Below, one piece after another: positions 25,153 to 58,961 of a DNA stretch of 64,000 nt (the stretch's first letter is position 1; each line of letters begins with the position of its first letter). The translations under genes and the position numbers were made by a program. Location: the NCBI GenBank assembly GCA_976226885.1, contig OZ320321.1:4154001-4218000 (forward strand), written 5' to 3'. Below the pieces are notes generated by a model. That model did no database searches and had not been told where the DNA came from. It was given only the letters and a program-made list of their open reading frames with translations. The stretch is from Iphione sp. A-MEVVRFRX5 (Eukaryota).

Positions 25153-25168
25153 CTTCTCTCCAGAAACT

Positions 25169-33037: not shown

Positions 33038-34500
33038 TGTGACGTTCTACACTCCCCTTTTGGAGGAGTTTTTAGATTTTTTTTTTTTTGGGAGGATGTC
33101 ACTTTCCTGAGGGATCGATAGGGTGGGTATTGTGGAGCAAAGCACCTCCTACCTTGGGGTTTTCTTCTCGAATCCTGGATTCCTTTCTTCTTCTGTGGTC
33201 CAGGGCGGCCTCCAGTCCTGGATCTTTTAGTCTTGAATCTGATGTTTTCTTTTTCCAGCAGGAATTAATAAAGTTTTGTGTTCATACACCTGACCTGTGT
33301 TGGTTGATTTTGGTTTTGAAGAGGCTTAAGATTATCACCCTCACAGAGTAATGTAGAAGATGAAATAGAGGAACGAGGACCCTGAGTGTAGGGTTTCGAG
33401 GGCTTTATTCCGAGTACATCAGTTGGATGATATGCTTTTCCCCTCTGACAGTAGAGCTAAGCTGGCAGACGTGTGGCAGGATGAACTTACATTTGGTGTC
33501 AGGTTCGGGACTTACGAGGCAGACCAGAGCCTGTGGATTCAAGTCCTGGGCAGGAGGGTTGGAGTCCTTCTTAGTCGGGAGTCCTCCCGACTGGGCAGCT
33601 GCCAGTAAAAGACCGGAGGATAGGTGGTTCCTCCAGCAGGGCTCTGGCCTGGTCTCGGCCACTCAAAAATGCTGGGTACTGAATCTCTTATTTCGCAACC
33701 CTAACTGATTTTAAAACTCTCTCTCCTCTGGGGAAGATGTGCAGCCTCTTTATATACGTCCCTGGTCCCAGGCTCTCCCTTCGCATTGGCTGAAAAGGGG
33801 CTATTCTGATTGGACGGTTGGGGGAGAGAACTGCTCTGATTGGCTCACATAAGTAAGCACCCCACGTTGAGGCCCAAGAGATCAAAGGGATTCCAGGTAA
33901 AGACAGATGGGGGCCCTAGAAATTGCACAATCCGTTGGTGAAGACTAATGAGGGCCATAAACGTCAGTTTAAGCTAAAAGTGTACCAGAATTCTCATAAA
34001 GTTTGTACTCAGGGCCATAACGCCTGTCAGTGGCTAGGAAAGATAATTGGATGGGTGATGAGGCAGGAGTCCAGATCCTTTGGAAAGGCAGACATCCGGG
34101 TCTAGCTCATTCAAGGGAGGAACTCGGACCGGAGTCACAAAGACAGGAATTTGTTGAGTATGCTGGACACCCAGAAGTAAGGAGAAAATATTCTTCACCT
34201 GTCAGATTCCTATCAAGTTGAGTTATTAGGAGATAGGAATCTCTTTTGATCTGGTGACTACCCTTCAGATGAGTTGCGAAAGAGAGGGATTACTCACACC
34301 TGCTTAGATTCCTTTGAGTTGCATCATAAAATGTTGGGAATCTGCTGACTGTCTTTTTTGAAGGGAACATTGGTGTCCCTTGAGTGGGAAAGGGTGGGAC
34401 GGGTATATAGTAAATGCTGAGTCGGCACAGAAGGCTCAGATGAGGTTGAATTTGCCTTCCCACAATGGAGTCGATGTTTAAGGGAGTTGTTGATCTAACA
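33038..34500 (-). repeat. 3' LTR of element B (~1.46 kb)
   Basis: Colinear with 57493-58961. On the minus strand: three CCAAT boxes (~33785-33843), TATAAA (~33750-33757), AATAAA (~33404-33409). Confidence 0.95.
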
Positions 34501-34519
34501 CCCTCCCAAGCACTGAAAA
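34501..34519 (-). other. Polypurine tract region of element B
   Basis: Minus strand TTTTCAGTGCTTGGGAGGG abuts the TG of the 3' LTR. Confidence 0.6.
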
Positions 34520-35703
34520 AGCCGTGTTGCCATTACACGGGAAGATATGTCTGAATTGACTACTGTCAGAGAGGAGAGTCATCCAAGACACAGTCACATC
34601 AAGTTTAAAAAAGGGTACAAGTTACATTAAACAATCCGGTAAACAATTTACACACAGATTGATTGCTACAATCTCTGAGATAAAAAAAATCATCATTCAA
34701 TCACTGCCAAGGATAAGCACACAAGCTTCGGTCACCGGTGGTTGTTTATTGTTGCCCAAGATTTTTACCTTCTTGCGCCGGTCGACCTCCACCTGGGTGG
34801 ATCTTGGGGAGTGTCCAGAAACTACACAGCAAACCTAGGTAAGTAACCATTTTCTATGCAATGTGTACTCTGCAGGAAAGACCTCATTAATAAAATAAGA
34901 ACACTCAAGTAGAAACAAATAACTGAACATTTATGGTACTCATCGTGATAGTAAATTACAACATAACCCTAGAAGTGAACTTAGATCAATCCGGTATCAA
35001 GAAGATATTTCCCGTGCGCCGTGTAAGTGATTGTTGACCTTTTACTCATACAGAGGTGTATAATTTCAGGGCTCAGTTTCAATGTTGAAGACCCTTGCGG
35101 TCTTTTTACACATAGTCGTTGGAGGCCAGACTCTCAGTGGAGCTGGCATACGGGAAATGGAACAGCTTGACAATAGGATTCGGTTTTGGAGGCGGGGAGG
35201 TAGCATCTGCGGATGCCGCCTCTTCAACAACATCACTCATGTCCAATCTCGCCAGCAGCTCATGGTAAGTTGGTGGGGAGGAGGCGACAGATTCCGCTTG
35301 GGGAGGAGCATTATTAGGTTTAGGATTTTTCGATTCGATTGGGGGAGAAGAGGGGGTTAGGGGTAGTTTAGGATAAGGTCCATTTTGAAGGAGGTAAGCC
35401 TGTCCCTGCTGTCCAAGGATAAGGGCCTGGGATGGGAGGTCCTGGATGGTGAGCACAAGGGGCTGGATATGCCTACCCTTCCAAAGAGGGACACAGACCG
35501 CCCTTGGGAGAATAACCTTACGAGTAGAGATGGAGTCTGATTGGTACAGGGGGTTGGAATACGTAAGCCGAACCAGATAAGTAAAACATTGTCGCTCAAC
35601 CTGAATGGTGAGAACCTTGGGGACCAGAAAAGTAATAGTAGGGAGGGCATTCGTCCGAAACTCATGGAGGAGAAGGGTAGCATGATCTTTTGGGGACCCA
35701 ATT

Positions 35704-37752
35704 TTAAGCAGGATCTGGAATCCCGAGGGAGAAGGTACAGGGCCCGTTTCTGTAGATTTCGCTTTGCAGTATCTTTTGGATGGCGTCTACATGATCAAGG
35801 AGCTCATTGTCCTTGGGAGGCAAGGTGGGCCCAGGTCTATGTGTCGCTCCCAGCAGGACCGGTGTTGCCCTTGCTGCCGGTGCTAGGGCAAGGGACAAGG
35901 TAAGGGTGTTTATCTTTTGAAAGAGGTGGATAAGGCCAAAGAGAAGGAGGAGGGTCACTGCAGAGTGAATAGAGTTCCATGCCCACATAATGGGGGTAGC
36001 CACAGTTCGGGCTTGACTGGAAGTCCAGTTTGGCCAGTATGCCATTTCCTTCTCCTGTCTTATCCTGATCTGTCGAGATTGTTCTATTTTGCGGGCTATT
36101 TTGTCAAGGTCTACGCCTGTGTGATCGGGGAGGGACTGCGACAAGTTAAATAAGGAAGAGGAATTAGATGTGAATATCAAACAGGAAGAAGTCCTTGAAA
36201 GTAGCAGAGGCAGTGAAATTTGGTAGGGAGAGATTGAAGGCTGTGGCAGCTGCTAAATTGATGCCGTTGACTGGCATGATTGCTCGTTCTTTGGTACAGA
36301 ACGCTGATGGAGGCATGTTGTAGGGTCCCACAGTGAGTGAGCAGTTGCACGGGGGTTTATATGTACAGAGAGGACAGTGAACATTAGTGGTTTTTCCTAT
36401 CAGAGTGTCTTCACCGGGTGTGGACCCGCTGATATATTTACTGTATCGTTTAGCCTTTTAAGGTAGGGTGGCATAGTGTCATTGGGGTGAACTGTAAACT
36501 GGCACCGGTGTCTTACAAGATCATGTCTATCATAGAAGAGGCCAAAGAGCAAGTCTGGGTTGCTTAGACATTAATAGGGGGTAGGGTTGTACAGGTGAGG
36601 ACATCATGTCCTTCACAGAAGGATAAGTCATATGGTTCGAGCTCTATAAAGGCAGACTGAAGAGGGCAGACTGCCATGTAGGCTGGCATGCATTGGATCT
36701 TAGTATATCCATGTGTTGTGGTAGTGGGGAGGGGTGTGTTAAAAGTATGAACATGATAAAGGTCAAACTGATCGCCGGGAGTACCTATTGGTACTGAAAC
36801 ATGAAGGAATACGTAATGATTGGAGTACATGAACTTGGTAAGCACGTGTTAGTAAAAAAAACCTCGGTCTGAAATCATTATATTTTCGCAGCCTTTTAGC
36901 TTAATGTTAATTTTTGCTAATCCCCTAGTGAGTTGTGCTGGAGAAATTAGACTGCCAGGAAGTCGCCCTATGCATAAGTCGTTAATCGCCAAGCAGTAAT
37001 GCAAGTACTGCTGTTTTGCTTGATGGAGAGTGTTGATTTTTAGTAGGAGAGTGGAGAAATAGTGAGTTGCCTCTGTTACTGCGTCTATAAGGCTTGATTG
37101 ATTTTGGAGAAGGTGTTCAGTTTGCTTTGCTATCTGGTCAGCCTGGTGAATTATGTTGGTTATGGCCTGATCATGGCGGTGTGTCTGTTGGAGAATTGCT
37201 TGGACGGTAGTGGCGGTACTGTTGGATAGTTGTGCCAGTTGGTCCTGCAGCTCTCCAAAGCGAATTTGGCTGTTTACAGCATCTAGGGTGTCAATTCATT
37301 TAGCCAGAGCATGAATATCATCCATGGTTGCCGTTCCAAATATGTACTTGGATAGAGTTCCCATGAAGCCAAATGGTGCTCTTGGCTGTTTTCGCGTATC
37401 GTATGTAGTTGGAGCAACCAAAAGGTTCTGGAACTGCTGGTTTTCATCCACCGTTTCCGCGAAAACAGACATATATTTTATGAGTCCTGCATATGAAAAC
37501 TTCCAATCTGGAACATGCCGCGTGCCATGAGCAAGGTAAAGGTTTGATGGGAGGCTTGATGAGCTTATGGTGCGGAAAGGGGGCTGGTCTTGGTATGACA
37601 AAAAGGAGATCCACGCTTCTCGTGTTGACGAGGATTGGAGTTGACATCTTTTCGTAGAGGACGCCAAAGTTTTGTCTTAATATATATTTAGATCATGCTG
37701 CTGGTGTTAAGACAGCGACGAGTAGAAAAATGACTTGCGTCACGATAGTAAC
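35704..37752 (-). pseudogene. env: env-like class I fusion glycoprotein (errantivirus env / baculovirus F-like)
   Basis: Signal-like VIFLLVAVLTPAA; RQNFGVLYEK; basic cleavage site RKQPR followed by APFGFMGTLSKYIFGTATMDD; heptad region; Cys-rich ectodomain; TM-like AVTLLLLFGLIHLF; stops/frameshifts. Confidence 0.82.
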
Positions 37753-40700
37753 CTGGAAAGAAATATTTCATTGTCTCTATGCCTTCAGATTGTTTTTTTT
37801 TTTTGTATCCGTCTTAAATGACTGCGGTGGTTCCTTGAGGTGTTATTATGCCTTGAAGTGGTGTTGTCCTAAGTGACTAATGTAGTGCCACCCAAGCACT
37901 GAAAATTCAAGTTCTACCACTGAGCTTTGAGGAGAAATAAACTCTAACGCTTTGTGAGTATATTTTCGGAGAGTGCTTCATTTGACTGAAGGCAAGAAAG
38001 GGTGCAGGGGGGGGGGTGTGTAGGTGAAATTGAGTTTTGGGGCAGTAATGGGGTTCTTATAGATCTTCTTCAAGATTAAAGAGAGTTTGTGCTGCCACTT
38101 CTTCAAGGGCTTGCTGGGCTGCTCTATAGTTCTTGAAAGGGCCATGATGGCCTGTTTGTGCACGTAGTGCCAAACAACAAAGATAGTCCCAATAGGGGAT
38201 GTCATTCGGAGCGTAGTTTGGAGCACGTTCAGTGTCCAGATATCGGACGAGGTCTTCACGAGTGCGTGCTGCAATGTTTGGTTTAAAGACATCTAAAGTC
38301 AGGGTGTCCGTCAAGTTGAGGGCTCGGCCCGTTAAGGCATCCCTGTAGAGGGTGGAATTACGGCTTTTACGACGGAGGAGATTTCTGTGATGAGTGTCAG
38401 TAGTGTAGTCTCGCTGGATGGTAGGCCAGGAGATAGGGGGGGTAATATCAGGCGGGCATTCGTCAGTGAAGAAGTGGATGCCTTCACATGCAGATTCCTC
38501 TACGGCTCATTTCTCATGCCACATGAGCCCGATATGCGGCTTGAGCTTCTTCCTGGAGAAATGGTCTGTCCAGAAATTCGGTAGAGAAGACTCTTTTCAC
38601 TTTGGCGTGGGGAAGTGTTGGATGAGGGGGAGGGAAATAATTTGTGAAATGGTAGCCTGGGCGGTATGATAGGGGAATAACATAGGTAGGTTCAGGTGGG
38701 GTGGGAGAGGTTGCGCTAGAGGATGGGGGTGTGGGGGATGCAGTGGGAGAAGGCGAAGTACTAGTATCATGTGAGGCATCCGTGCCATTGGAAGGGGTTG
38801 GTCAGAAAGGTTCCGAGGCTGAACGAGGTGGGTAAGAGTGATTTTCAGAAGGGGGCCAGGTAGATTCAAGGGAGTGCGACTGAAAGGTAGGTCCTGGCAT
38901 TGGGTCTGGAGAGGGGGAGGCGGGGGTTGAGGGGAGGCTTGGGTTGTATGACGTAGATATGGGTGCCGAATTGAGGGATGAAAGAGGGGTAGAATGATTG
39001 GAGAGCGAAGAAGTGGGAGCGGGGATTGAAAGGTGGAGGGTGCCGTTCAAAACAGAGGAAGACGGGTAGATTGGGAGGGAGAATGAGGAAGTCTGCATGG
39101 ATGCTGGCTAAGGGAGGGCAAATCGTGGCAGGGGAAGGTCCAGAGGGCTAGAATGGGGGTGGGGTAAATGGGGATGGAGAGGGGGAACTATAGCAAGGTT
39201 ACGGGGAGGGCGAGGGTCTGGGAGAGTGGTTTCAAGGTGGGCCTGCTCGTGTGAAAGGGGGAGAACGGGTGTATGAGAGGGTCGAGTGACTGAGCGGGGG
39301 GATAGCATTAGTCGTGTTCTTCCCCCATGAGGGTGTCTAGTCGCCAGATATCGGTTAAATTCGTTGAAGAAAACGTTGAGCAAATCGTCAGATGGTTGAA
39401 AGTCCCTAAAAACAGAGAGGATATGTGGTAGTTCCGGTCTGAATCATTTAGTTGTAGATTCAAGATCAGGAAATATGTTTTTGGGTGGGTGATGGGAGTG
39501 TATGGGGGCAGGACAGTCTCTTAGGGAAATCGGAGAGGTCTTACATTGAGTTGGGGGCGTTGACTGGTGAGGGGATGGGTGCCTTTGGGGGGGGAGGGTA
39601 ACTGTAAGGAAAAAGGAAGGGGGGGTCAGGCAAGGTGGATCGGGGACTGATAGAGGTAGGTTCCAGGTGGTATCCACAAAAGAGTAAGGCCTACCTCAAA
39701 GCCATGATGGTTGTTGGTGATTGAGGTGTTTGTTGATTTGATGGAGATTTAGCCTGGGTTGATACGTGAAGAATGTGTTCCGTAATTCCTGGTTTTAAAG
39801 TGAGCATGAAGGGTGACTCGAGGAGGAGGGCGTTGGTTGACGCAATTGATATAGAGCGCTAAGGCCGAGAATATGGATTGAGAAATCCAAAATTCTGAGT
39901 TCCAAAAAGGCTGGATGCAAAGGTTTGAGTGGTGTCGGGCAGTTTTCACGACAAAGCTTATATACTTATCGCTAGGGGATAGTCCAGGATAGGGGAAGGA
40001 GTGTCCATTGTAACAGGGGTGAGAGGTGCACTTGGTACTAGCGAGAGTGAAGATGTTTTATGGTAATGAGCATGAGATAAAAAGACGATTAAAAGGGAGT
40101 GATATAGTATACCTAAGTCAGTGAAAAAGGTGGGGGAACCATAGATCTGTGGTCGCGAGTCGCCAAGGAACACGGCGGTAGGGGGAGGTTGTCATAACAG
40201 GTGGTAACGTGTTGTGAGAGGGGGAGATAGCAGATAATGAGCAGGAGGACTGTGTTGGTCGGGCAGTAAAAAGGCAAGGGGAGGGAGAAAAATAGTCTTG
40301 AAAGAAGTATAGTTTGTTCTCGACCCGGGATAAAGGAACCTACAACGATCATATGGATGGACGAGAGAAGGGAACAGGTGAGTGTCGAACAGGTGTAAAG
40401 CCGGGATGAGAATGGGAAACAATTATGCTGTACCCATGACAGTAGGTAAGGGGCTAAGTATTCTCTTGGGGTGGGTGAGAGACGGGGGTATCGGGGGAGG
40501 GGGCATAGTAAACGGGACAGATTGACCTGATTGGGATGGGAGTGAGGCTACATTTGTACATTGGATCGTTGGAGCTGTGAAGGAGTAGCTCACGGGTCAA
40601 GAGAACGCATAATGGACACGCTAAGAAATGCTCTGCGACAGGTGTGGGTGTTTGCCCGGAGCGTTGGGGTGCTCCTGGGTCTAGTCGGAGAGGGGGGCTT

Positions 40701-41930
40701 AGCGCCCCCAACTGCACTGAAAGGTGAGTGGTAATTTCTTATTTGAGGCAGGAAAGGGTTGGAGTTGGTTACATGGGGGGAGGAGGGAGGAAGGGAAGGG
40801 GCTGGGGCTACTTATCGGTACACAAGTTTTTGTGGTTGAAAAAAAAGGGGGGGGGGGAAACGGTTTCGAGAGGGAGTCTATGAGTTTCTTAATTTTATGT
40901 ATATGCTTAAAGTGTGGAAGAAATAACTCTTTGTTTGGGTAATGACCTAAGTGGATAGGAAACTGAGATTAATCGCTAATCAGGGGGGTTCAAGGATGGT
41001 TTTTCTGATGCTGACGGAGGATCGCTGTGAACTATGAGGGCAGGTCGCAAGGTCAGCATTATCAGGATGCCTCACAAACTGAGCTAATCTTGGGGCGAAA
41101 TCCCTGCAGCGGGAAACACATCATTTGGCCTTTAGGACCGTCTGATTCCTAGGATGGTAAATCAGAGCCATTTGGGAGTTTAACGTGTTCACAGACGATC
41201 GTGTTGCAAGACTTTAGTTTGTTTTTGTTTATAGGATTCCTTGGTGTCAAGTATGCATGATAGGGAGAGGAGGGGGTTCGTCGCAGCTTGATAGTTAAAA
41301 GGCAAGCAAAGAGAATTAAGGGGTCACAGGAAACCTCAAGAGATCATGGCGACAAAAGTGGAATTGAACTGTCGGCATACTAATATATCAGAAGGGTGGG
41401 GGAGGGTTTGGAGGTTGTAGCCGGGAAGACCACGGTTTTAATGGTGAATGCAAGTAAATCAAGTGAAATGGTTGTAAGGAAGGGTCCTGCAATTGGGAGT
41501 TCTGATCGCTGATATCACGACTCGGACTTATTGCCATTTCCAGTAAGTAGAGACAAGATTCAACAGGGGAACAGGCTGGGAGTGCGGGTGAGTGATGACA
41601 ATTCAAAAGGGCGGTTCTTGTGGTTGAAGTCTATAAAATTTTATACCGAAAACGAAAGAAGTGGGGGAAAGGAAATAATGCCGTGGGGTTGGGAAATAAT
41701 TGCAGTATGGTTTACTACAATTCCGTCCGTAAGGAAGGGTTGTGTGCCATAAGTAAAGTAGAGGGAAGGAAAAGAAGGAGTATAGGGGTGTCATTATTGC
41801 CCTTGTAATAGGTTTTCCGGCCTTTCGTGAAGAAAATTATCTGGTTTCAAGGCAATTAATTGTATTGGAGATGGGAATACTCCGATGTGTACGCCTGCAG
41901 TGCAATTTGTTTAAAAGATAAGAAAGTGGC

Positions 41931-42285
41931 AAAAGCCGTTCTCCGTAGTGCGCGACAGGTACTTCCTCCTTTTGGGGAGGACTGCCTCTTTTTCAAAGGA
42001 GGCTTCAGGCATGGGGGTATGGCACTTGCTGCTTGCCCTATGGAGGGGGCCAGCGGGAGAGAGACTTGAGCGACCGTGTCGAAGCCTGGCTGAAGGTTCT
42101 ACTGGGTAAACCTTGTCAGCATGTCCCGAGAGGTATGGCACTCGTTCATCGAACGAGGCAGACAATTATTTCCTTGGTTTAACTCTCCCGTTCTGCACCA
42201 GCTGGTCTGGGTTTCGAACCCTCTCGCCCCTGGCATTCATACGCGGGGAGGAAACGTCCTAACCGCTACACCACGGAGATCGGCT
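41931..42285 (-). ncRNA. Pol III-type RNA unit 1 (~355 nt, VA/EBER-like architecture)
   Basis: A box TGGTGTAGCGG, B box GGTTCGAAACC; 17-bp terminal stem AGCCGATCTCCGTGGTG / CACTACGGAGAACGGCT running into TTTT. Confidence 0.72.
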
Positions 42286-42794
42286 GACAGGTGTAGTGTA
42301 AAACTTAGAGCCAATTGTGCATCTAGGACGTAAATAAATCATGAGATGGCACATCAGTGGCGCGCGCGTGGTGACGTCACGATTCGGACCCGGTTACAGG
42401 GCGATTTTAACTGGGTCAAGTATGGTTCACCGCTAAGTCTGAGGAGGGCGCCGCAATGTAGGCCCAGTATCCACGTAGGGGAACACATGTAACTGTAGAT
42501 ATGATGAGGGCGAATGTATGTTTTGAAGGTTACCTATAGCTAATTCAATAATGAAATGGTATAATAGTGGCGTGGAGTCAGATGTTTTGCAAGTTGTAGA
42601 GAGTAAAAGAGTAAGTATTTTCAGGCCTTGGTTATGTGGAAAGGAGGAGGGGAAGGGTGACGGGAGTGCTTTGCCGACCTGTGTTGTAAACTGTTGTGTG
42701 TGTGTATGGAGGGTGATAACGGCGGTAACGTGGCAGATCAGAGCCCAGTGGAGGGTTGGTGATTCGACATTATTTTTTGGTGGTAGGAGAAGAC

Positions 42795-43225
42795 AAAAAT
42801 GCCTTTGGTCCCCATGACAGACACCTGTCTTGGGTAAGTCTTTCAGTGCTTCTCTTCTTTCCTTGGGGAGGATCTGGTGGGTGTACACGCGCATACATGG
42901 CCACTTGGAAGGAGGCAACTCCCTCTCTCAACGAAATCTGTGAGTGCTCTGGACTTACAGCACTGGAGCTGACGCAGGCCTGCAGCTGAAGCTTCTACCA
43001 GCAGTAGTGATGAGGAGGTGGTGTGGAGTACACCTGGGTGGGTCTTTTCTGACTGTCATCTGCTACTAGACCCACTTCTTTATCCATGCCCATCGTGGCT
43101 GTGTCGCTGTTCGACGGAGGAGAGGCAGTCCTTGGGAGAGGCCGGCCGTGGGACTCGAACCCACATCTGGCTATGCTGCACGCATCAGGTGGAGTGCCCT
43201 GCGTTCTGAACCATGGGGACCGGCT
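42795..43225 (-). ncRNA. Pol III-type RNA unit 2 (~430 nt, tRNA-like head, terminal stem, T5 terminator)
   Basis: 5' AGCC-GGTCCCCATG pairs with 3' CATGGGGACC-AAA-GGCA followed by TTTTT; T-arm GTGGG TTCGAGT CCCAC. Confidence 0.65.
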
Positions 43226-44479
43226 GAGGTAGGAATGCCACATGCTTAGGGTGAATACGTGCGGGGGGGTAGTTCTCTTTCGAGCTGCTGGGAGGCAGCA
43301 CTGAAAGGCAATGAGGCCAGGTCAGTTGGTCGGTCCATTTTTAAGGAGGTCAGCAGCAGTTTCGCGGCCCAGGGTAGGCAAAAATGGTTGGAAAAGAGTA
43401 ATTTTTATGGCCTACAGAGGATAAAAACTCAGCCGAATCCGTAGGAACTCGTGCCGGCCTGAACTGGGGGGTTGCATGGTGAAGACACCTTTCGCAAGGG
43501 CTTGAGAGATGAGTATGGACAAGACAATGGGGGTGAATCTCCAACTCGAAGTGCCATATGGCCAGCTGAGTATGTTTGAATAGGGTGCAGTTAAAGGCCC
43601 CCGAGAGAATCCGAAACCTGGTTGACGGTTCTCTTGGGTAAGTCTTTTCCGTTGTCACCATAGACCCCCTTTGTGGTCCCCATTGCAAATCAAAGAAAAT
43701 TTCCCGCTCTTCCGTCATCCTTTACCCGTTCAAGATGGGTTAGTTCCTTTCCACAGTCCACGCTCTAGGCAGTGGTAAGGTGCGTCCAGTCGGCGGCCAG
43801 TTAGCGGCCAGTTATAGCAGTGCAGGGGTCTACCCTATTCCTAGGTGTCATAAATCTGTCATAATCCTGGAGGGTACAAGGGAGATAGTGCACTGAGAGG
43901 TTGGCTTAGTGCAGGTAGACGGCATATAGGGAGATGGAATGTCTTTCCACCTGAAATGCTAAGTGGCCAGTAGGAGAGTATATAGTCCGGGTGCAAGAGA
44001 GTAACAGTAGTACAGGAGAAGGAGCTGAGGCCACTTGAGAGGGAATGAGGTGAGTGTTAAGCGTGAAGGTAGGTTCTACAAGAAGGGGTATGAGGATAGT
44101 AGATGTAGAATGTAAGTCAGAGGCAGGTAGCCAGAGAGATTCAATAGAAGCCGTGCGTAGAGAGAGGGGTGTGTCACGGTGACGCCGGAACGTGCGGGCA
44201 AATATATTCAGGCTGATTGGTAGCTGAGCCTAGTCAATGTTGAGAGATGCGGGGTCTGGCTTGGGTCGGAATTGCGCCATTCGGTTCTAAGTTAAAGTAA
44301 ATATTTCGAGCGTGCGAGGTTTTATCTTATGCTTAATCTTAACCTCAGATATGGCGTAAAGAGGGGTTTTTGTAATTTTTTGCTTTTATTTATTTTTTTG
44401 GCGGGGACTTCTCAGAAGCCACAGTCCTTTTTGTTTTCTTTTTTGTTTAGGAACGAGGGGAGGGGGTGTCATTAGTGTT

Positions 44480-45772
44480 CATTTTTTTGTTGTTGAGACA
44501 ATAGAGAAAGGCGGGTCGGGGGGCAGTATACAAATGTCGATTTCCTTATTGGGCGGGATCCTCTTCCTCCAGGTCGCGGAGGTCCTCCATGCTGAGGGGA
44601 CGGTTGACTGTCGTGGACACCGCCCGGAATTGCTGCCTGGGGAGTACCCGCATGTCGTTAAGCAGCCTGTGTCGCCAGGTCAAGAAGAACATCCAACTCC
44701 TGCTGGTCAAGGGTGCGGCGGCGAGCTTGGTGCCGGAGGGTTTCTATGTGGAGGATGGTGGTGTTGTGTGCGGAGAGCTCGTCCTCCTCGCGCAGGTTCC
44801 AGTCAGCGGGGGTTCCTGGGCGTTGGGCCCCCGACAAGAGAAAGTAAGGCCTATCCCTAAGGGGCCCTAAAGTGTCTGCGGTTATCGTCTGCCCAGTAGA
44901 TATGGCCTCAACGGTCGCCAGGCTGAGGGAGGCGATGTTTCTCTGCTGCTGGGACCAGGCTCGCCAGTCTGGGGTAATGTTGATACGTACGGGTCGAGTA
45001 GGCGGGTATCGTGCCAGACCAACATAAGGGCGCACAGTCCCTTCAGCAATGGCCTGAAGCCACTGGTCAAACAGGGTGACAGGGTGGTTGGCATCCTGGG
45101 GTGGTGGGACAGGTCCTTCGGCAGGCTGATCCCTCCGAGTCATCGTCAGAATCTAACCGTCATCGTTGTCGGGGAGGGGAGCCCGGGGGTGGCGCAGCTT
45201 GAGCTCTAGACGGTCCAGGTTGTGGTTCTTCATCACTCCTCCTCCTCCTGCCTCTGCTGACGCCCTCTGCGTCTCCTGGTGTTTCTCTGTCGCAGAGGAA
45301 CAGGGTCTCCCTCTCGACCCCACCAGGCGTTCATGAGGTTGCGAACCTCCATGCGTGCAGCCTTGGGTGCCCTTTGGGCCGGCAACCTCCACCCCGCTGA
45401 GTCCAGCCCAAAAAGATGGTGAAGGTTGGGCACACACAAGTGTGCCGCTGACACATGAAAGCTGTGGACATGGCTCTCCCAAGCCGTGTAGTCCCTCAAA
45501 TAAGCTTTGCCCTCGCACCACAGGCATGCCATATATTGCCACATTCTGGTTCCTCATACAGGCAAATGGTGCACCCTTCGGAGATGACGGTTGAGGTTTG
45601 ACTGGGTGTTAAATAGTTTGTGCTGGCAATGAGTGCAGCGGAGTCCTTTCGCCATTACAGATGAAGAGACGCTGTTAAGTGGGTTTACGTTCCAGTTCAA
45701 GGGTTGCTGGGAGTGAGATAAGTTTGTGTGACGTGGGAAATTCAAACTCGAGACGTACGTGGTTCGAGACAT
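44480..45772 (-). pseudogene. Element B accessory ORF: two C2H2 fingers followed by an unknown domain
   Basis: CTHC-x13-HLRRVH, an in-frame TGA, then CLWC-x13-HVHSFH. A frameshift leads to NLDRLELKLRHP, which is in frame (one stop) with ORF 44658..45143. Confidence 0.6.
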
Positions 45773-48527: not shown

Positions 48528-49079
48528 TTACGGCATGGTAGAGAATGTTAGCATATGGGGGGGGGGGCATGGTGAGGAGAACAGAGTACCAACAAGAAAG
48601 CGGGGTTGTGTGGGGTAAGTGGAGAACCTATTCCTATAGATGAGCACCACTCGTACAGCTGCTTCGCGGATGGGGTTGTTGGATTTTATATAACAGAACG
48701 CCGAAAATTGTTTGTGAAGTGCAAGCATAATCAGGGTATCCCACGAAGGCAGAAAGTGTCGCGGGAGCCGAGGCTTGTTATAAGTACGGAGATAGTGTTC
48801 TATGAGAGTAGACAAGGGGATCTGAACCAGAGTAAGGTCCAGGTTGAAGAAGGAAGATCGCCAAGAGGTCAGTTGGTCAGAGACCGATGCAAAATTGTCA
48901 CACGCAAGGTGTTCCAGCAGAAGATGACGGCCCATAGAAGAGAGTGAGGGGTGTCGCAGGCCCGTATGAGTTTGAAACAAAGCCCTGACAAGTTCATAGA
49001 TGCAATCTCTCAACGCAGGTTGTTTCCCTTTGCATAGCTGATCTGCCCTATGTTGCAGGCGCCCTCGACATCTGGACAT
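48528..49079 (-). CDS. Accessory ORF P2 (183 aa, unknown family)
   Basis: Intact; QPALRDC...GLRHP...FFNLDLTLVQ...PSWDTLIMLAL; splice acceptor 2 nt before ATG. Confidence 0.72.
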   Translation of the reverse strand: MSRCRGRLQHRADQLCKGKQPALRDCIYELVRALFQTHTGLRHPSLSSMGRHLLLEHLACDNFASVSDQLTSWRSSFFNLDLTLVQIPLSTLIEHYLRTYNKPRLPRHFLPSWDTLIMLALHKQFSAFCYIKSNNPIREAAVRVVLIYRNRFSTYPTQPRFLVGTLFSSPCPPPHMLTFSTMP

Positions 49080-49206
49080 ATCTAAAAAGAGGAGAACCCG
49101 ATTGTTGGCTCTATAAAATAGTGTAATGGGGGTTAGGTGGAGTCATTCTTTTGTCCTTTTTCCTAAGGGAAATTCATCTTTATGTAACCTAAGTCAATGA
49201 CTAACC

Positions 49207-49758
49207 CTAACTTTCTGTTCTTACTACTTTGCAGGAGGGCCAGGCAAGGGTTTCCCATTCATCCGCGGAGACAGGGTTTCGCCTAAACAAGCCTGCAGTG
49301 CAGGATTTCGGGGTTGGAGATCCTGTTCCCTTAAGATAGGTCTCAATTGCCTTGATAGCAGCTTGGTTCCTCCAGGAAGGGCCATAGGGAACCTGACATC
49401 GTTCTTCACAAAGAGCCAACATGATGAGAGTGTCCCATGTCGGAAAGAATATTGGGGGTAAGTGCGGTTCTATTCCATGTTCCAGGTATGTTTGTATATT
49501 CCGCCTTAAAGCCAGCTGTACAAGAGGTAGCTCAAGCTTGAAAAAGTGGGAGTTTCGGTCAATACCGGCCATGTCTGGTTTGTTAACACACAAAGTGAGT
49601 CTGCATAGGAAGTCCCTTCTTTCTACAGAGGAGATGCAGGGGTGTCGCAACCCCTGGGTTGGTCTGAATAGAAGAAAAGAGAGGTGTGGAATGCAGTCTT
49701 TCAGTGTAGGAAGTCTACCATTTCTTAGGACGCGCTCTCGACTGTAGATGGAGGCCAT
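49207..49758 (-). CDS. Accessory ORF P1 (183 aa, unknown family, paralog of P2/P3)
   Basis: Intact; motif LP.L.DC...GLRHP...FF.LEL.LVQ..L...PTWDTLIMLAL; splice acceptor 3 nt before ATG. Confidence 0.72.
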   Translation of the reverse strand: MASIYSRERVLRNGRLPTLKDCIPHLSFLLFRPTQGLRHPCISSVERRDFLCRLTLCVNKPDMAGIDRNSHFFKLELPLVQLALRRNIQTYLEHGIEPHLPPIFFPTWDTLIMLALCEERCQVPYGPSWRNQAAIKAIETYLKGTGSPTPKSCTAGLFRRNPVSADEWETLAWPSCKVVRTES

Positions 49759-50658: not shown

Positions 50659-53600
50659 TCAGTGTCCCTTTTTAACGAATAATTTCCGAGCAAGAGACTT
50701 CCATCGAGATGTAACCAACTGAGCAGGGGGAGAGGCTTGAGGAGTTGATTTTGTGGCCAGAGTATGGACAGAGGACCAAAGGCGACGACTGCATCTTAGA
50801 TTCAATGCAGGGGGCGGGCTCAGAGGTGTTCCAGAGGAGGGTGACTCAACCTTGGAGGTCTGGGGGCCTGGGGGTCCAGGATAAATAAAGGGGTCATTCC
50901 CCTCAGGATCCTCTTTGGGGTTCTTCCAAACAATTATCTTCTTTGTTCCCGGAGGAATGGTGAATTTCTCAAGTTTGACTACAGGATTCATGTCGTGCAG
51001 TTGATTGGCCTCACTAGGGGAGGGCGATTTACGAGTTCGTTCCATAAAGCGAATCACACCCTCATCTTTTTCTGTATCGGAATCCTGAGTGTCAGGGGAA
51101 GAAGAATCAGAGGAAGTCTGTTCCTCTACCTGTGTATTTGAGGGAGACTCCTCCTCTTCCTGTTCCAACCCGGGCAAGCCAAATCCGACATCAAAGTCCT
51201 CAGGATCAAGTGGTTTATCCTCCGTCACAAATTTGTCAGGGACAGCCACTTTAGTGGATTCGGGGGAGGCTGGCAGATCCTCTTCTCCCAGGGAAATTAG
51301 AATTGCCAGAGAAGGGTCTTCTTCTGGGCTGGTGCGCATAGGAGTTTTCAAGGGGGGTAATAACTGCGTCCTCCTGGGAGGAAATAGGGCTGACTGAGCC
51401 ACATAGTCCCGTGGATTGGGGACTGTCCGGGGGTAGGTCTTCGTGGGAAAGATTCTCATTATGTATTTCTTTGTTAATCATAGGCCCCACAGTCCTGTTC
51501 ATTTCAGGCGGCTGGTGGTGACTGGTCGAGAGAGATGACGGTTTGTCTGGAGACATTTCAGATAAACCGTAGAGGGGGTGTGGAATTCTGTAATGGCATA
51601 GGGCCCATGATAGACTCGGGCCAGCTTCAGCTTGAGGAAAGGATCCCTAAGCTGTGGCATGTAAAGCCAAACCATGTCTCCCTTCTTTAGTTCAGGGCTA
51701 TAGGCCCTGTCATCAAATTGGTCCTTCATGACGACAGAGTATTTCTCTGCAGTCTCCTCAGCAGCCAAATTAGCCTGATGTTGGGTATGGAGATGCTCCC
51801 CCAACCTTTCCTGGACCGACATTGGTTCATCCTCAGGAAGAGGAACTGAATCCATTTCTGGACGGCACGGCTCATAGCCATTCAGAAGAAGGTAGGGGCT
51901 CTGACCGGTTCTAGGGGCCTTAGTGGTGTTTAATGCAAAGCAGATAGATGGAAGACAAACGTCCCAATTGTTCTGATTTTTACTTACGTAATTTCGAAGG
52001 ACTGTCAGAAAGGAGCGGTTAGCCCTTTCCACTAACCCTGAGGTTTTGGGGTGACCTGCTGTAGTGAACTTTTGTTTCATTCCATTTTGTCGGCAGTAGT
52101 TCATAAAGCGGTCCGATATGAAAGCTGAGCCGTTGTCCGATACTATAGTGTTGACGGTGCCAAAACAGTAGACAACATGTTCTTTAAATTTGGAAATGAG
52201 AGTGTCTGCCCGTAAGTCCGGTTGGGCCTTTTCCTGTTGATGGCAATCCCTCAATGGCATCCATACTTATGGTGTTCCAAGGAGTGGGAGCGGGGTCTTG
52301 GAGAGTGAGGGGGGGCCTAATCGGCCTGGTCATTCGTGTTGTTTGACAACACCTCACGCAGGTGGCATAGTAGTCATGTACATCCTCACTCATTCCTGTC
52401 CAAAACAAGGTCTCCCTCATTTTAGATAGCATTTTCACCAGACCTAGGTGGCCTGCATGGGGGGTGTCATGGTTTTGCTGAAGAAACTTTTCTCTAAGAA
52501 GACATTTTGAACAGAACACTTTGATAGAGGAAGAAATCTTCCTCTCTGAGAAGCACCCAAGCACCGTTTTGTCATCAAGAGGCTACCATACTTGATGAAT
52601 GAAACGGTTTGTTTACAAAAGGCATCGTTCCTTTGGGCTTCCAGAATCTCTGATAAAGGGATATGGGAAGATTTGAGAAGCCTTTCTGCTCCCGATTGAA
52701 GGACAAACTGTCTCTCTCTCCTCTTTCGATTGTTAGGCCCCTTCTTGGCAAGGAGGGGGTCCGTAGGTTTATCTTCAGAGGTGCCGGGATCCGGCATCAC
52801 TTCCACTGCTCCAGTGGGAAGAGGGGAGGGGGAGGATTTGGAGGCTTCCAGGGATATTTGTGACATGGGGGTGCGGTCTTTCTTGATGGGAACATTGAGC
52901 CTGGACAATGCATCAGGTACTGCATTGGAGGCACCTGGGACATTGGACTGTATAATTGAAGGGCTGAAGGAATTCCATCCAGCGAATCACCCTTGTGTCC
53001 TTGTGCTCCAAGGACTTGGTTACAAGAATGTGAACTAAGGGGTTGTGGTCCGTTTGTATACAGAACTTTGCGCCCTCGAGATAGACCTTCCAGTGCTTTA
53101 CGGCATAGAAAACAGCAGCCATCTCCTTGTCTGTGGTCGAGTAATTGAGCTGCACTCCCTGAAATGCTTTTGCCCGAAAGGCAACAGGTTGGATATTCCC
53201 TGAGTTGTCTCTCTGGGACAGGCTGGCGCCCATGCCGTAGTTACTGGCGTCCATGGCGAGAAAGAATTCTCGACCAAAATCAGGGTAGACGAGGAGTTGG
53301 TCGTCCATACATGCTTGCTTGAGTGTTTGAAATGCCTCCTCCTGGGTTGGGCCCCAGAGAAATGGAACATGTTTTCTAGTTAGGTCGTAAAGGGGCTTAG
53401 CCTTCAGGCCGTATTTTGGGATAAACTTTCGGTAGTACCCTGTCATTCTCAAGAATCGTCGCACCTGTCAGACAGTTACTGGCATCTTCATGTCCTGTAT
53501 TTTGGCAATGTTGTCGGGTGCTGGTCTGATTCCATCAGTCATGATAATGTGACCTAAAAATTTGACTTCTGCACGACTGATTTCACATTTAGAAGGTTTT

Positions 53601-54942
53601 AATTTAAGCCCGGCTGCAATAAGTCTGTCCAAAACCTGACCAAGATCTCTCATATGTCTCTCAAAAGTGGGAGAGAAGACAACGATATCATCCATATAGG
53701 CAAGGCAGATTTTGTACTTAAGACCGGACAGAACCATGTCCACAATGCTCTAGAAAGATGCAGGGGAGTTTTTGAGTCCCATAGGCATGGTCTTATAACG
53801 GTATTTGCCGGTGGGAGGCAGAAAGGCAGTCTTATCTCTATCCTCATCTCGAATGGGAATCTGGTGGAAGCCCTTTTCTAAATCCATTACCGAAAGGAAT
53901 TGAGGTTTGCCGTTGCCGACGGCATCAATTATGTCGTCAACTCGAGGAATGGTGAACATCTGGATGACTGTCTGAGTGTTTAAGTTCCAGTAGTCCACAA
54001 CTAACCGAAACTTACCATTTGGTTTAAGAACTAGAAACCTCCTGCCTTTTCTAATATTCCTTTGCTTTCCTAGTCGGAGACAATGCGATGAAGCTCATCT
54101 CTCATCATTGGCAACATACGAAAAGGTTGGGCTTGGGTGGGGGTACAGTCAGGGGTAAGCTCAATACGGTGTTGGACTAAGGAGGTCCTTCCAACCGTTC
54201 CATCAAGGGAAAAAGCCTCCCATCTGGAGTGAAGGAGCTGTTGGCAGATCTCTCTCTGCCTAGGAGTGAAATTAGACTCAGAAAGATCTACAGGGATGTC
54301 AGGGGGGGTTGGATGGGGTCTAACGGGGGGTGTTTTGTGTGAGAGCAGAAACGTCATAAGGAACTCCTTCAGTGAACAACCCAACTCGAAGACCTCTTCA
54401 CAAGCTTTGAGGCTTCTGAGAGTAGTTAAGAAGGGAGATGGGTACCCGGTTATTGTGGACTCTGACTAGGGTTTCCTTGTTGGAGACGACCGGCCTAGGG
54501 GTAGCTTTTAGAGTGTCCCTATACATTCCTTCCTCAGAGTCAAATGACTCCCCATTTCCCAGTATCAGTGCCCACACCAAGGTCTCAGACCTGGGCTGGA
54601 GCAAAATATCCACTGGCAGGATGACAGCGAAGGTCTCTTGAGGTTGGGGGGTGAAGAAAAGGTTGATAGAGAACTGGTGTAAAAAGGTTTGTCCCAAAAT
54701 GATGTCATAAGACAAGTTGTTAAGGACATGGAGTTGGACCGGATAAAGGAAATTGTCAATAGGGATTTAGATGTGAACGATATTGGTGGTTTTTGACACA
54801 GTGCCATTCGCCATAATACACTCAGCGTTTGTTGGAACAACCTTTAGGTCAACATTTTCTTTTCGCAGCCGCTCGAAGGCAACTTGACTCAAGCAACATC
54901 TCTGAGTGCCTGTGTCGATTAATGCTCTGAACAAGGCACCTC
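50659..54942 (-). pseudogene. pol: Element B pol (PR, RT, RNase H, integrase, long acidic/Pro tail)
   Basis: ALIDTG, YDIILG, VMDLEKGFHQI, MPMGLKNSPASF, LAYMDDIVV, MDASNYGMGA, HDTPHAGHLG..CVRC, VSDNGSAF, HPKTSGLVERAN, YHGPY, tail with LRCSRRL. Confidence 0.93.
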
Positions 54943-55832
54943 CTAGTTTAAGTTCACTGGTACAATCAGGTGTGAAGGGGTGGCAAACGACTTCCGATCA
55001 GGAGCACTACTAGTTCTAGTCATATGGACCACCCTTTTTGTATTATGGCCCTTTACGGTCTCTGTTTTTGAGACTATTCCCAGAATTTCCTGGAGTTTGG
55101 GAGGGAGTTTGAAATCCGAAAAGAGCTGATGGTGATGAATCTCGTCGGGAAGCATAAAATGTTCGCCACCTGTAGGACAAGCTGGAATCCTCCCACACCT
55201 TGGCTTGAGTGTTTTTCGTGTAATCTTTGTACTCCAGAAAGTTACAGCATCATGGACACAAGTTTCCATGAACTCACAGTCAGGTCTACATTCACCCTGT
55301 TTGTGCTTGATGATAGATGACTGTATCAACATGAGAATGTGGTACTCAAGGCTATTAATACAATGGCACAATCACATTTCAACAAAACATTACCCTCCGG
55401 GTCTAACTCGGAAAGGCAAATACAATGATTAGGACAGTGTGAACAGTCAAAACAGAAGGATCATTTGTCAGCAATGATCGGGTTATTGTCCAGTACCTTA
55501 GTTCTACTCTGCTTGTGGGAAAACCTTCTAGGGCAGAGAGGGTGTGATTTTACAGTATGATACCGGAGGCTCTTAACCCATCCCAACCTTTCTTCTGGCT
55601 GCCGTGTCAAGGGTCGGGTCAGGATCAAGAGAAACCCTTTTTTATCACAGTCTGGGGGAAAAGGGGGGTTAAATGGGCTATCAGGGGAAGGACAAGGATG
55701 GTGGGGGCTTGACGGACAGGGGTTATGAGGGGTTTCACAATTCAGGTGAAAATGGGCCAGCATATCTTTCATTGCTTCATCCCATGGGTCACCAGTGTGG
55801 GACTCCCAACACTTGGGCTCGTTAGGAGCCAC
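54943..55832 (-). pseudogene. Cys/His-rich region between gag and protease
   Basis: ORFs 55461..55832 and 54943..55371; the latter is in frame with ALIDTG (protease) after one stop. Confidence 0.45.
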
Positions 55833-55834
55833 AC

Positions 55835-57434
55835 CTAGTTTCCCGCTTCTGGTGTTTTATTCTTAGCCAGGTGATCAATTTCCCTCTTTATCTGGTCCAT
55901 GATATGCTCCATCGCCATGATCTGGCCATTTCGAGGGTCAGGGTTGTATTGATCCAATGAAAGGGGGTAACGGTCAAAGTAAGGGAGGGTAGGGGAGTTC
56001 TGGTAAGTTGAAGGGTATGAGTTAAAGGGAAGACAAGGGCAGTATTGACAGGGATTAGGGCCGTGAGGACGGTAACCCCCGCGTGGTCGGCCCTCAAAAT
56101 GGGGTTTGGGGGCCACTACCTCTTTCCAAATCTCTCTTCTTAGTGTTACATTCTGGCGCAAAGTGCCCTGGATTGTGGCAGTAGTAACAAATCACAGTGG
56201 AATTGTCTGGAGGCAGAGGAAAGCCCACTGGAGTCCCTTGAGGAGGAGCAGTAGGGACCGGGACTGGTCTTTGAGCGGTTGGGGTGGGGCCTGTACCTGA
56301 GCATTTGAGGGGTGAAGGACAGGCGCCGGAGTGGCTGGGGATGTTCCTCCCAGAGTCTTAAGAGCATAGGTCATTATTTCGCCCGACAAGTCCTGCATAA
56401 TTTCTTTCGTGAGGGCGTTGACGATAGACTCCATGTCGGAAAGTCTCTTGCGTAAACCTCCCTGATGCCGCCAACGCTTGCAGACATCTTGCACAGCATG
56501 ATGAAAGGAAGGGACATCCCTATGGTCCATCATTTCTCTAAGCTTGGGGAGGATGTTTTCCATAAATATTCTCCCAGCCTTCTCATCACTGTCCTGGCCC
56601 ACTGCTATGCACACCCTCATGAGCCTATCCGCAAACTCACTGGGTGTCTCATCCCTTCGTTGCTTACAGCCTCGCAACCTTTCCGAAATTTCAGAACCTG
56701 AGGGACCCTTTTCTTTTAAAAGGAATGCTTTAAGAGTTTCCCAGTATCAGTGGCAGGCAATGTGAATGTGAAGAGTTCGGGGACAGAAGGCGCTTATCTT
56801 CTTGAAACACCTATGGATATAGGCGGGCCGGCGGGCATTTCCCTCTCCCTCTAACTGGGTACCATAAACAGCCTTCATATAGTCCTCATCATTGGGGAAA
56901 ATTAGGGAACATACCCAGCTTTCTTGGCTTAACAGTCAGTCTTTTGGTTAGAGCCTCTATTATATCACCTTCTGCCATTCTATCATGCGTACGCCTAGTT
57001 CCCACAGAAACAGCAGGGTTAGAACTTACTGATGGTCTGAAAGCAGGCAAATGAATCGGTGCTTGTGTCGAGCGTGGCTGCCTCGATGGTCCGGGCTGAG
57101 GGGAAGTACTTCGTGGCGTAATGAAGATCTGTCGACGGCTGGTAAAGGGGACTGTGGTTGTCGACTTAGGAGTTGATGTCTTTTGACGACAAGGGAAGGA
57201 AATTTCACCGGAGGAATCGTCACGAGATGCTGACTGTCCGGAAGACGAAGAGGAGGAGCGCCTGGTGTGGGTGTGCAGTAGATGGGGCCCCAATGGAATC
57301 TGAGGGCTGTCTGATGGGGAAGGAGAAAGAGTGGTGCGGCCTCTGGTCGAGGAGCAACTGCGCCATTCGCTAGCTGGGATGTGTGGTTTCCCGGAGGTGA
57401 CGCTCCTAGTGACAGGCGGGGAGCTGTCTGCCAT
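55835..57434 (-). pseudogene. gag: Element B gag
   Basis: Ser/Pro/Arg-rich N-terminus; capsid-like CKQRRDETPSEFADRL...IFMENILPKLR; RGG-rich end; frameshifts; no canonical CCHC seen. Confidence 0.75.
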
Positions 57435-57472: not shown

Positions 57473-57491
57473 GTGCCCGGGTTCTCCACCA
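57473..57491 (-). other. Primer-binding site of element B (tRNA-Ala-like)
   Basis: Minus strand TGGTGGAGAACCCGGGCAC, 1 nt inside the 5' LTR; complementary to a ...TCTCCACCA tRNA end. Confidence 0.7.
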
Positions 57492-57492
57492 G

Positions 57493-58961
57493 TGTGACGT
57501 TCTACACTCTGATCTTGGAGGAGTTCTTAGATTTTTTTTTTTTTTTTGAGGATGTCACTTTCCTCAGGGATCAATAGGGTGGGTATTGTGCAGGAAAGCA
57601 TCTCCGGGTTTTCTTCTCGAATCCTGGATTCCTTTCTTCTTCCGTGGTCAAGGGCGGCCTCCAGTCCTGGATCTTTTAGTCTTGAATCTGATGTTTTCTT
57701 TTTCCAGCAGGAATTAATAAAGTTTTGTGTTCATACACCTAACCTGTGTTGGTTGATTTTAGTTTTGAAGAGGCTTAAGATTATCACCTTCACAGAGTGA
57801 TGAAGAAGATGAAATAGAGGAACGAGGACCCTGAGTGTAGGGTTTCGAGGGCTTTATTCCGAGTACATCAGTGGGACGATACTCTTTTCCCCTCTGACAG
57901 TAAAGCTAAGCTGGCAGACGTGTGGCAGGATGAACTTACATTTGGTGGTGGGTTCAGGACTTACGAGGCAGACCAGAGCCTGTGGATCCAAGTCCGTGGC
58001 AGGAGGGTTGGAGTCCTTCTTAGTCGGGAGTCTTCCCGACTGGGCAGCTGCCAGTAAAAGACCAGAGGATAGGTGGCTCCTACAGCAGGGCTCTGGCCTG
58101 GTCTCGGCCACTCAAAAATGCTGGGTACTGAATCTCATATTTCGCAACCCTAACTGATTTTAAAACTCTCTCTCCTCTGGGGAAGATGTGCAGCCTCTTT
58201 ATATACGTCCCTGGTCCCAGGCTCTCCCTTCTTACTGGCTGAAAAGGGGCTATTCTGATTGGATGGTTGGGAGAGAGAACTGCTCTGATTGGCTCACATA
58301 AGTAAGCACCCCAAAGTGAGGCCCAAGATATCAAAGGGATTCCAGGTAAAGACAGATGGGGGCCCTAGAAATTGCACAATCCATTGGTGAAGACTAATGA
58401 GGGCCATAAACGTCAGTTTAAGCTAAAAGTGTACCAGAATTCTCATAAAGTTTGTACTCAGGGCCATAACGCCTGTCAGTAGCTAGGAAAGATAATTGGA
58501 TGGGTGATGAGGCAGGAGTCCAGGTCCTTTGGAAAGGCCGACATCCGGGTCTAGCTCATTCGAGGGAGGAACTCGGGCTGGAGTCACAAAGACAGGAATT
58601 TGTTGAGTATGCTGGACACCCAGAAGTAGGGCCATAAAGAAGGAGAAAATATTCTTCACCTGTCGGATTCCTATCGAGTTGAGTTATTAGGAGATAGGAA
58701 TCTCTTTTGATCTGGTGACTACCCTTCAGATGGGTTGCGAAAGAAAGGGATTACTCACACCTGCTTAGATTGCTTTGAGTTGCATCATAAAATGTTGGGA
58801 ATCTGCTGACTGTCTTTTTTGAAGGGAACGTTGGTGTCCCTGGAGTGGGAAAGGGTGGGACAGGTATATAGTAAATGCCGAGTCGGCATGGAAGGCTCAG
58901 ATGAGGTCGAATTCGCCTTCCCACAATGGAGTCGATGTTTAAGAGAGTTGTTGATCTAACA
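57493..58961 (-). repeat. 5' LTR of element B
   Basis: Colinear with 33038-34500, with scattered, mostly transition, differences. Confidence 0.95.

Follow-up and report, generated by a model that had tools for sequence, protein, structure and literature searches.

A 26-kb Ty3/gypsy-type element with an F-type envelope gene and five selected accessory genes in Iphione sp.

Is a 26-kb interval between two long terminal repeats (LTRs) a single retroelement with a gene set of its own, or a smaller element swollen by later insertions? This question is raised by a locus in the genome of Iphione sp. A-MEVVRFRX5 (assembly GCA_976226885.1, contig OZ320321.1, positions 4,154,001 to 4,218,000). The window, i.e., the whole stretch of DNA that was analysed, is 64,000 nucleotides long, and positions given without a contig label refer to it. 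The element at 33038-58961 is a Ty3/gypsy-type retroelement with gag, pol and an F-type env, and independent copies of it share a block between pol and env in which five accessory genes are under purifying selection.

Boundaries and independent copies

The element lies on the minus strand, running from 58961 to 33038, and is delimited by a single LTR pair. Its terminal features are as follows.

57493-58961, minus strand: 5' LTR, 1469 bp, with a TATA near 58206 and an AATAAA at 57858
33038-34500, minus strand: 3' LTR, 1463 bp
58962-58965, unstranded: target-site duplication (TSD), CTCG on the plus strand
33034-33037, unstranded: TSD, CTCG on the plus strand
57474-57491, minus strand: primer-binding site of 18 nt following the 5' LTR, an exact complement of the 3' end of host tRNA-Ala(AGC), including CCA
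34501-34515, minus strand: polypurine-tract region immediately next to the 3' LTR, with the same sequence in 15 of 18 copies

The LTRs have TG...CA termini and are 94.2% identical when gaps are counted, with 66 substitutions in 1456 aligned bases (4.5% diverged), and the AATAAA is retained in all 26 aligned LTRs. The primer-site pattern has 21 genomic matches, and ARAGORN calls tRNA-Ala(AGC) at five of the six loci fetched. Such LTRs, with a primer site, a polypurine tract and a 4-bp TSD, agree with the termini of the Metaviridae (Ty3/gypsy), whose TSDs are 4-6 bp long. A self-comparison of positions 5900-64000 (E 1e-5) found no internal pair of LTRs or terminal inverted repeats (TIRs) within the element. 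A sequence-only reading of the window had proposed one LTR pair and a 4-bp TSD enclosing gag, pol and an extra block free of internal LTRs and TIRs, and the LTR alignment, the CTCG on both sides and the self-comparison agree with it. The window copy itself is decayed, with gag, pol, A3, Z, D and env hit by stops, frameshifts or deletions.

Other copies tell whether the block belongs to the element. Most of the fetched search-hit regions (15 + 29) carry pieces of the block colinear with pol and env at 65-92% identity, and copies with differing 5' flanks are independent insertions. These regions were picked from match lists, and they show a heritable architecture rather than its frequency. The nearest second copy (C19:3329653-3355907) was rejected as independent evidence, being a segmental duplicate that shares both flanks. 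The following copies extend from LTR to LTR.

C1:144768519-144794127: 25.6 kb, LTRs 97.1% identical, TSD ACTG
C13:100908300-100938158: TSD ATAT, with nested inserts
C2:9982229-10008442: 26.2 kb
C5:1025166 onward: 24.2 kb

Younger copies measure 26.2, 26.2, 27.0 and 28.8 kb, and their LTRs are 99.5, 98.7, 99.9 and 99.8% identical, respectively. Full copies span 24-29 kb, and perfect 4-bp TSDs flank the window copy and four others. In a sister family, which is ~73% identical, an unbroken copy has separate gag (552 aa), pol (1781 aa) and env (899 aa) frames, and subfamilies share an invariant gene order, A, (Z), D, env. The sequence-only reading had named copies without the block, or parts of it with their own termini or TSDs, as the outcome that would tell against a single element; what was found instead is independent insertions with TSDs of their own that carry the block colinearly. 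Among 4726 A3 candidates, the best 150 are 96-100% identical to a young copy and 145 of these are stop-free; of 5335 Z candidates, 150 were scored. The lineage is abundant, and it is still amplifying or has recently amplified.

Some further observations concern the copies themselves. At three 5' junctions (C10:48730745, C2:10008442 and C17:51900768), the first two TSD bases are followed by GG and there is no full 4-bp TSD; GG is also the last two bases of the polypurine tract, and an unremoved terminal dinucleotide may have stayed at integration. Beyond these three, the junction survey gave five copies with perfect TSDs and two that are unclear. At C10:48720237-48730745, internal deletion has left a non-autonomous copy of 10.5 kb, with 97% identity between its LTRs, which retains part of gag-protease and most of env. 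On C1, C4, C5, C6, C17 and C23, many copies are grouped toward contig ends or lie on contigs that are small; others are grouped at C4:16-27 Mb, and nesting of one copy in another is frequent. Viral contigs gave no relatives, and a metagenome scan gave distant Gypsy loci alone (best segments 26-41%).

Genes of the element and the selection on them

To decide which frames are genes, we used omega, here obtained by simply counting synonymous and non-synonymous variants that occur in two or more copies, with the transition bias taken to be 2.5, over 44 projected rows from which 11 duplicate or overlapping region sets had been removed. A six-frame scan showed constraint across gag, pol, A1, A2, A3, Z, D and env, and none in 50600-49750, 46690-45800 and most of 44300-39600. 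As a control, all 12 of the other stop-to-stop frames tested were unconstrained (omega 0.66-1.3, all p>=0.046), whereas the accessory frames gave 0.08-0.41. Five accessory genes, A1, A2, A3, Z and D, are therefore under purifying selection, around a non-coding middle of ~5 kb. The genes and related features are listed below.

55838-57434, minus strand: gag, with one CCHC knuckle (zf-CCHC) and a candidate splice donor at 57029; broken in the window copy
55838-55844, minus strand: slippery heptamer of the canonical form X XXY YYZ, just 5' of the gag stop
50662-55856, minus strand: pol, with a Cys-rich extension of ~290 aa, protease (PR), reverse transcriptase (RT, YMDD), a single RNase H, integrase (IN) and an acidic tail of ~270 aa; broken here
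49210-49758, minus strand: A1 (A domain), omega 0.38, p 9e-8; acceptor-like AG at 49763
48531-49079, minus strand: A2 (A domain), omega 0.27, p 9e-19; acceptor-like AG at 49083
46652-47042, minus strand: A3 (A domain), omega 0.08, p 4e-22, shortened by a deletion in the window copy; acceptor-like AG at 47046
44549-45655, minus strand: Z, with two C2H2-like fingers, an acidic/Pro-rich linker and a conserved C-terminal domain, omega 0.08 and 0.17
39450-44500, minus strand: non-coding middle region, common within the family and replaced in the sister family
38060-39405, minus strand: D, with a short conserved N-terminal block, a Pro/Ser-rich linker, a CX2CX3HX5C motif and a C-terminal A domain, omega 0.15-0.41
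35109-37743, minus strand: env, with a signal peptide, F-type ectodomain, membrane segment, second hydrophobic segment and PPxY tail of ~290 aa; broken here; acceptor-like AG at 37754

The Pfam order in pol (gag-asp_proteas, RVT_1, RT_RNaseH/_2, Integrase_H2C2, rve) is that of Ty3/gypsy, and the succession PR-RT-RNase H-IN with a Ty3/gypsy-type RNase H, the only RNase H found, and an HHCC integrase is that of the Metaviridae. A bridge region of ~170 aa follows the RNase H; in ancient errantiviruses, this region holds a 'mini' domain. In the window copy, gag, protease, RT, RNase H and integrase are all interrupted by stops or frameshifts. In the unbroken sister copy, the gag and pol frames overlap at -1, and together with the heptamer this points to a Gag-Pol protein made by -1 frameshifting into pol. 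The best pol relatives are 53-54% identical. Retroviral Pol has a tether and a second RNase H. No retroviral protein is named among the best 120 RT matches, most of which are unnamed, and in a quick RT tree of 47 rows, built without named reference elements or retroviral references, the element groups with 21 unnamed pol proteins (SH-aLRT 99). Omega is 0.12-0.30 for the pol extension and 0.37 for the acidic tail. It should be mentioned that the extension, a Cys/His-rich segment ahead of the protease (54958-55856), is thus under purifying selection and has no Pfam match.

The sequence-only reading had seen three paralogous open reading frames (ORFs) in the block, and A1, A2 and A3 are indeed related by tblastx, with pairwise identities of 30-42%; A3 frames in other copies are 210 aa long. 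It had also listed further degenerate ORFs, among which D proved to be a real gene, whereas the other 12 frames tested are those without coding constraint described above. D has a phase-1 acceptor-like AG at 39407 and no conserved start codon of its own. Its C-terminal domain aligns with the A family at an hhalign probability of 95.4% (E 1.7e-8), against 0.9% and 1.7% for Z controls; by this profile comparison, the A family extends to D as a distant fourth member. A-gene content differs between copies: some subfamilies have A2 and A3 only, one has an extra A3-like gene, and in one copy A1 and A2 are tandemly duplicated.

An initial model of the A domain was unusable (predicted local distance difference test score, pLDDT, 45). 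After rows from D and the sister family had been added, the model became all-helical over ~150 residues, with a pLDDT of 81.6 and a predicted template-modelling score (pTM) of 0.79. A 37-sequence profile of the family, built from A proteins other than D, retrieved no relative at E<=0.001 among 1.84 billion representatives; the best Atlas score was 0.84, Pfam gave nothing above noise and a PDB sequence search gave nothing. Foldseek returned no match of the model at E<=0.001 in PDB or BFVD. Sec7-type helical bundles (best VIA Z 4.0, root-mean-square deviation 4.5 over 119 residues) were rejected as a common helical arrangement. This lack of a match does not prove a new fold.

Z is 480 aa long in unbroken copies, and the window copy has a deletion of ~270 bp at 45130. 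The zinc-finger ORF that had been noted in the block stands as a lead, with C2H2 matches at E<=0.1 in nine of 26 members; the Pfam score stays below its cut-off. Far more divergent Z genes (34-42% identity) at L068:9123-9596 and G000:C2:131456000-131458000 point to further subfamilies.

The env gene starts at 37743, ~13 kb from the end of pol at 50662. In other copies with unbroken natural frames, where it encodes 899 aa, Baculo_F matches lie above the cut-off (E 8e-7 and 1e-10), which confirms the env expected in the block as one of F type, and the Atlas score to Baculo_F/Gypsy clusters is 0.94. With homology to glycoprotein F and, by hydropathy, a signal peptide and a membrane anchor, the protein has the make-up of an F-type Env. 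No clear multibasic furin site is seen ahead of the fusion-peptide-like stretch, and word-indexed searches, which are weak evidence, found no relatives of env or of its tail. Past the ectodomain come the membrane segment, a signal-peptide-like stretch, the second hydrophobic segment and a conserved tail that ends in PPxY and a fixed C-terminus. Omega is 0.08 for env as a whole and 0.10 for the tail. In one sublineage (C2:131428001-131452000, C17:86736001-86759000 and C4:26152000-26173000), the F ectodomain is gone, and pol, D and a C-terminal portion of the env tail are still present. Because these copies lost the ectodomain and retain part of the tail, the tail seems to be a separable module, for which the PPxY motif suggests a role in budding.

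Colinear copies and purifying selection thus support the earlier proposal of an endogenised virus-like lineage with its own accessory gene set. It calls for qualification in three respects: about 5 kb of the block is non-coding, gene content is fluid between subfamilies, and infectivity is putative.

Expression and alternative explanations

How might these genes be expressed? AG dinucleotides preceded by pyrimidines lie 2-9 nt 5' of the A1, A2, A3 and env starts and ~50 nt 5' of Z (at 45708); for D, the AG coincides with the first codon that is conserved. These AGs are retained in 19/19 copies for A1, 18/20 for A2, 6/6 for A3, 15/15 for env, 14/15 for Z and 15/16 for D, i.e., in 93-100% for five genes and 90% for A2; the median for background AGs is 72%. 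Four of the sites persist in the sister family, and a strong start context directly follows the env acceptor in most copies. It is likely that the accessory genes and env are made by subgenomic splicing. We rate this as likely rather than shown because some background AGs pass the same filter as the candidate acceptors and no donor is dominant.

The block also contains three tRNA-like units.

45970-46060, minus strand: U1, with an A box and a variant B box, present in the sister family too
43141-43224, minus strand: U2, with an acceptor stem, A box and T arm/B box, at the same place in diverged subfamilies
42200-42284, minus strand: U3, with A-box and B-box motifs

U2 has all the parts of a type-2 RNA polymerase III (Pol III) unit (A box, B box, acceptor stem and T arm). 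In U2, 90-93% of cells are paired, against 30-53% when the pattern is slid, and U3 and U1 are weaker. In diverged subfamilies whose flanks cannot be aligned to the window, a U2-type unit stands between the A genes and D at all seven loci fetched, out of 21 pattern matches; these loci were picked by motif, which inflates the apparent conservation. All seven fell within copies of this lineage, and the idea that U2 is the head of a free short interspersed element (SINE) is unsupported in the loci checked. The Pol III-type RNA units of the sequence-only reading therefore hold as far as their A-box/B-box motifs go; neither ARAGORN nor Rfam calls U1-U3, and the nearest TTTT, as a possible oligo-T terminator, lies 265-551 nt downstream. 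U1-U3 are real units with a putative function.

Taken together, these observations make it fairly probable, in our judgement, that this LTR retroelement of Ty3/gypsy type, besides having an F-type env, expresses its conserved accessory set from alternatively spliced LTR transcripts, and so is a likely invertebrate counterpart of a complex retrovirus. Gag-Pol would be produced by the frameshift, and subgenomic mRNAs would use the acceptor ahead of each gene, with D taking its start from an upstream exon. Fusion and budding would fall to Env with its PPxY tail, which is anchored in the membrane and would supply a late-domain function. Z, by analogy likely a transcriptional regulator, would act on transcription, and the duplicating, variable A-domain proteins, for which analogy suggests host-interaction roles, could be adaptors or antagonists of host defence. 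The tRNA-like units might serve as internal Pol III promoters or RNA-processing signals. A bolder form of this proposal, which we hold only tentatively, is that the elements are infectious complex metaviruses that evolved a complex-retrovirus toolkit independently (a spliced Z transactivator, A1-A3 and D as an expanding family of host antagonists with an undescribed helical fold, tRNA-like RNAs, and an F-type Env polyprotein whose second membrane segment and PPxY tail serve in matrix formation and budding), are still amplifying, and were missed by surveys since env lies 13 kb from pol.

Several points weigh against the splicing-based reading and the roles assigned within it. The acceptor sites were hand-picked near gene starts, and four of the six pass a filter (kept>=0.9, pyrimidine>=0.72) that nine of 339 background AGs also pass. 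No strong conserved splice donor stands out, and the gag donor at 57029 is in phase 0, whereas D requires phase 1. Z is missing in a young sister family and the ectodomain of Env in some copies, so neither is essential. The functions of the A proteins and Z are drawn by analogy only. Within the family, U1-U3 (0.77-0.87) do not exceed neighbouring non-coding sequence (median 0.83) in conservation, and their covariation is not significant.

Part of this evidence would fit another arrangement, in which the accessory genes would be transcribed independently inside the element, from promoters and to poly(A) sites of their own, perhaps driven or punctuated by the tRNA-like units. An AATAAA is conserved downstream of Z, in 13 copies, and another near 34750. 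Both A2 and Z precede AT-rich spacers, the block contains boxes of Pol III type, and no strong donor shared by the genes was found. Foamy viruses use an internal promoter. The retention across families of acceptor-like AGs directly ahead of A1, A2, A3 and env speaks against this arrangement, as does D, which has no conserved start codon of its own, and we regard it as unlikely. A life without an extracellular phase is less likely still: here the element would be an intracellular retrotransposon whose cargo genes are selected for germline survival, e.g., by anti-silencing, and Env would be a relic or act from cell to cell only. The sublineage that deleted the F ectodomain points this way, and parts of the LTRs are 98.7% identical in one of its copies; the 10.5-kb deleted copy bears its own LTR pair, and purifying selection leaves the roles of genes undefined. 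Against this, the env ectodomain is constrained as strongly as pol (omega 0.05-0.14), and several young copies have it in an uninterrupted frame of 899 aa. Finally, the 16-kb block might consist of passively carried nested or captured fragments. The middle region is replaced between families, and that of the sister family holds nested pieces of long interspersed elements (LINEs) and poly(A) tracts. The fixed order of A, (Z), D and env, the strong selection, the absence of internal termini or TSDs, and the confinement of U2-type units to the lineage at seven of seven loci make this explanation highly improbable; it is already largely refuted, on the small share of genomic matches inspected.

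The rest of the window holds other repeats. The insertion target was the LTR-like end of an older GC-rich Gypsy element, since 58962-59105 matches 24974-25117 at 87.5%; this element, at 24974-33037 and 58962-59120, has RT and IN remnants on the plus strand and a 75-bp tandem array at 32118-32431. A LINE-like element on the plus strand (16237-22939) has three ORFs (an ORF1-like frame, a 244-aa middle ORF and an RT ORF), and sequences related to the middle ORF are found again, nested and in antisense, within the middle region of sister-family copies. At 6366-15879, a 271-bp direct repeat (96%) flanks 9.5 kb that include a tRNA-like sequence (9760-9822), a region at 7603-9216 that we take to be Penelope-like RT/GIY-YIG, and a presumably piggyBac-like ORF at 11385-11897. 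A higher-order tandem repeat of ~3.3 kb with diverged subunits of 360-540 bp occupies 1-6100, with a 28-bp array at 3104-3318. As to the host, searches for connexins and erythrocruorin linkers gave no match, and neither did their controls.

Comparison with known systems

Sets of several accessory genes are generally regarded as characteristic of the complex retroviruses of vertebrates. Epsilonretroviruses carry duplicated accessory genes, and bovine leukaemia virus and foamy viruses carry Pol III RNA cassettes. Like complex retroviruses, the element has more than one accessory gene, paralogues that arose by duplication, a long Env tail with sorting motifs and, probably, splicing; Pol III RNAs may be a further common trait. 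It differs from them in its Ty3/gypsy-type Pol, its F-type env, the position of the accessory genes between pol and env, and an A domain without clear match to solved folds, cyclins included.

The nearest relatives in organisation are the ancient errantiviruses, F-env Ty3/gypsy elements that one survey describes as widespread in invertebrates (PMC13524379). They share with the element the gag-pol-env order, a Ty3/gypsy Pol with one canonical RNase H, an F-type env, LTRs, a tRNA primer site and multiple copies (PMC13524379). In contrast, env here follows five accessory genes and the element reaches 24-29 kb, and Env bears an additional membrane segment and a tail of ~290 aa, with no clear multibasic furin site. 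The survey's non-insect filter keeps regions of up to 10 kb in which at most 1000 nt separate POL from ENV, and because of these limits it would exclude the present architecture (PMC13524379).

Among giant elements, Burro/GYPSM1 of planarians is similar in size (interior up to 25 kb), Gypsy Pol, env homology and accessory ORFs (PMC6431247). Burro packs host-derived domains and env, the latter between gag and pol, into one polyprotein of ~4,900 aa, whereas here gag, pol and env are conventional and the orphan extras are separate (PMC6431247); no BIR, MATH, ankyrin or SMC match was found in the frames of the element, and no giant polyprotein is present. Ogre elements of plants are likewise Gypsy elements of 16-25 kb with extra ORFs of unknown function, their length coming mostly from long LTRs around an interior of 11-13 kb; the present element has an interior of 23 kb, with env, between LTRs of 1.5 kb (PMC6431247). 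Foamy-like endogenous retroviruses of fish reach 17 kb (PMC6431247). The Drosophila MDG1 group with sORF2 shares membership in the Metaviridae and accessory ORFs serving transmission; as described in PMC11952523, these elements lack env and have one or two short ORFs, and nothing sORF2-like turned up here, where none was sought. Troyka has CG...CG ends and a 3-bp TSD (PMC12440569), unlike the TG...CA ends and 4-bp TSD of the present element.

Our literature search, which covered sources other than Repbase and subscription journals, found no description of this architecture. We take the element to be a new complex-genome variant of the env-carrying Metaviridae, with extra genes of putative function. 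If this is true, an F-env Gypsy lineage of 26-29 kb with five selected accessory genes and a turnover of A genes would show that such sets arose independently in the Metaviridae, and it would push up the size attainable by gag-pol-env elements of conventional layout. The lineage also reveals a blind spot in surveys of env retrotransposons that require env beside pol. Lastly, an orphan and confidently modelled domain in four paralogues, together with many young natural copies, allows splicing, Pol III use and host antagonism to be tested.

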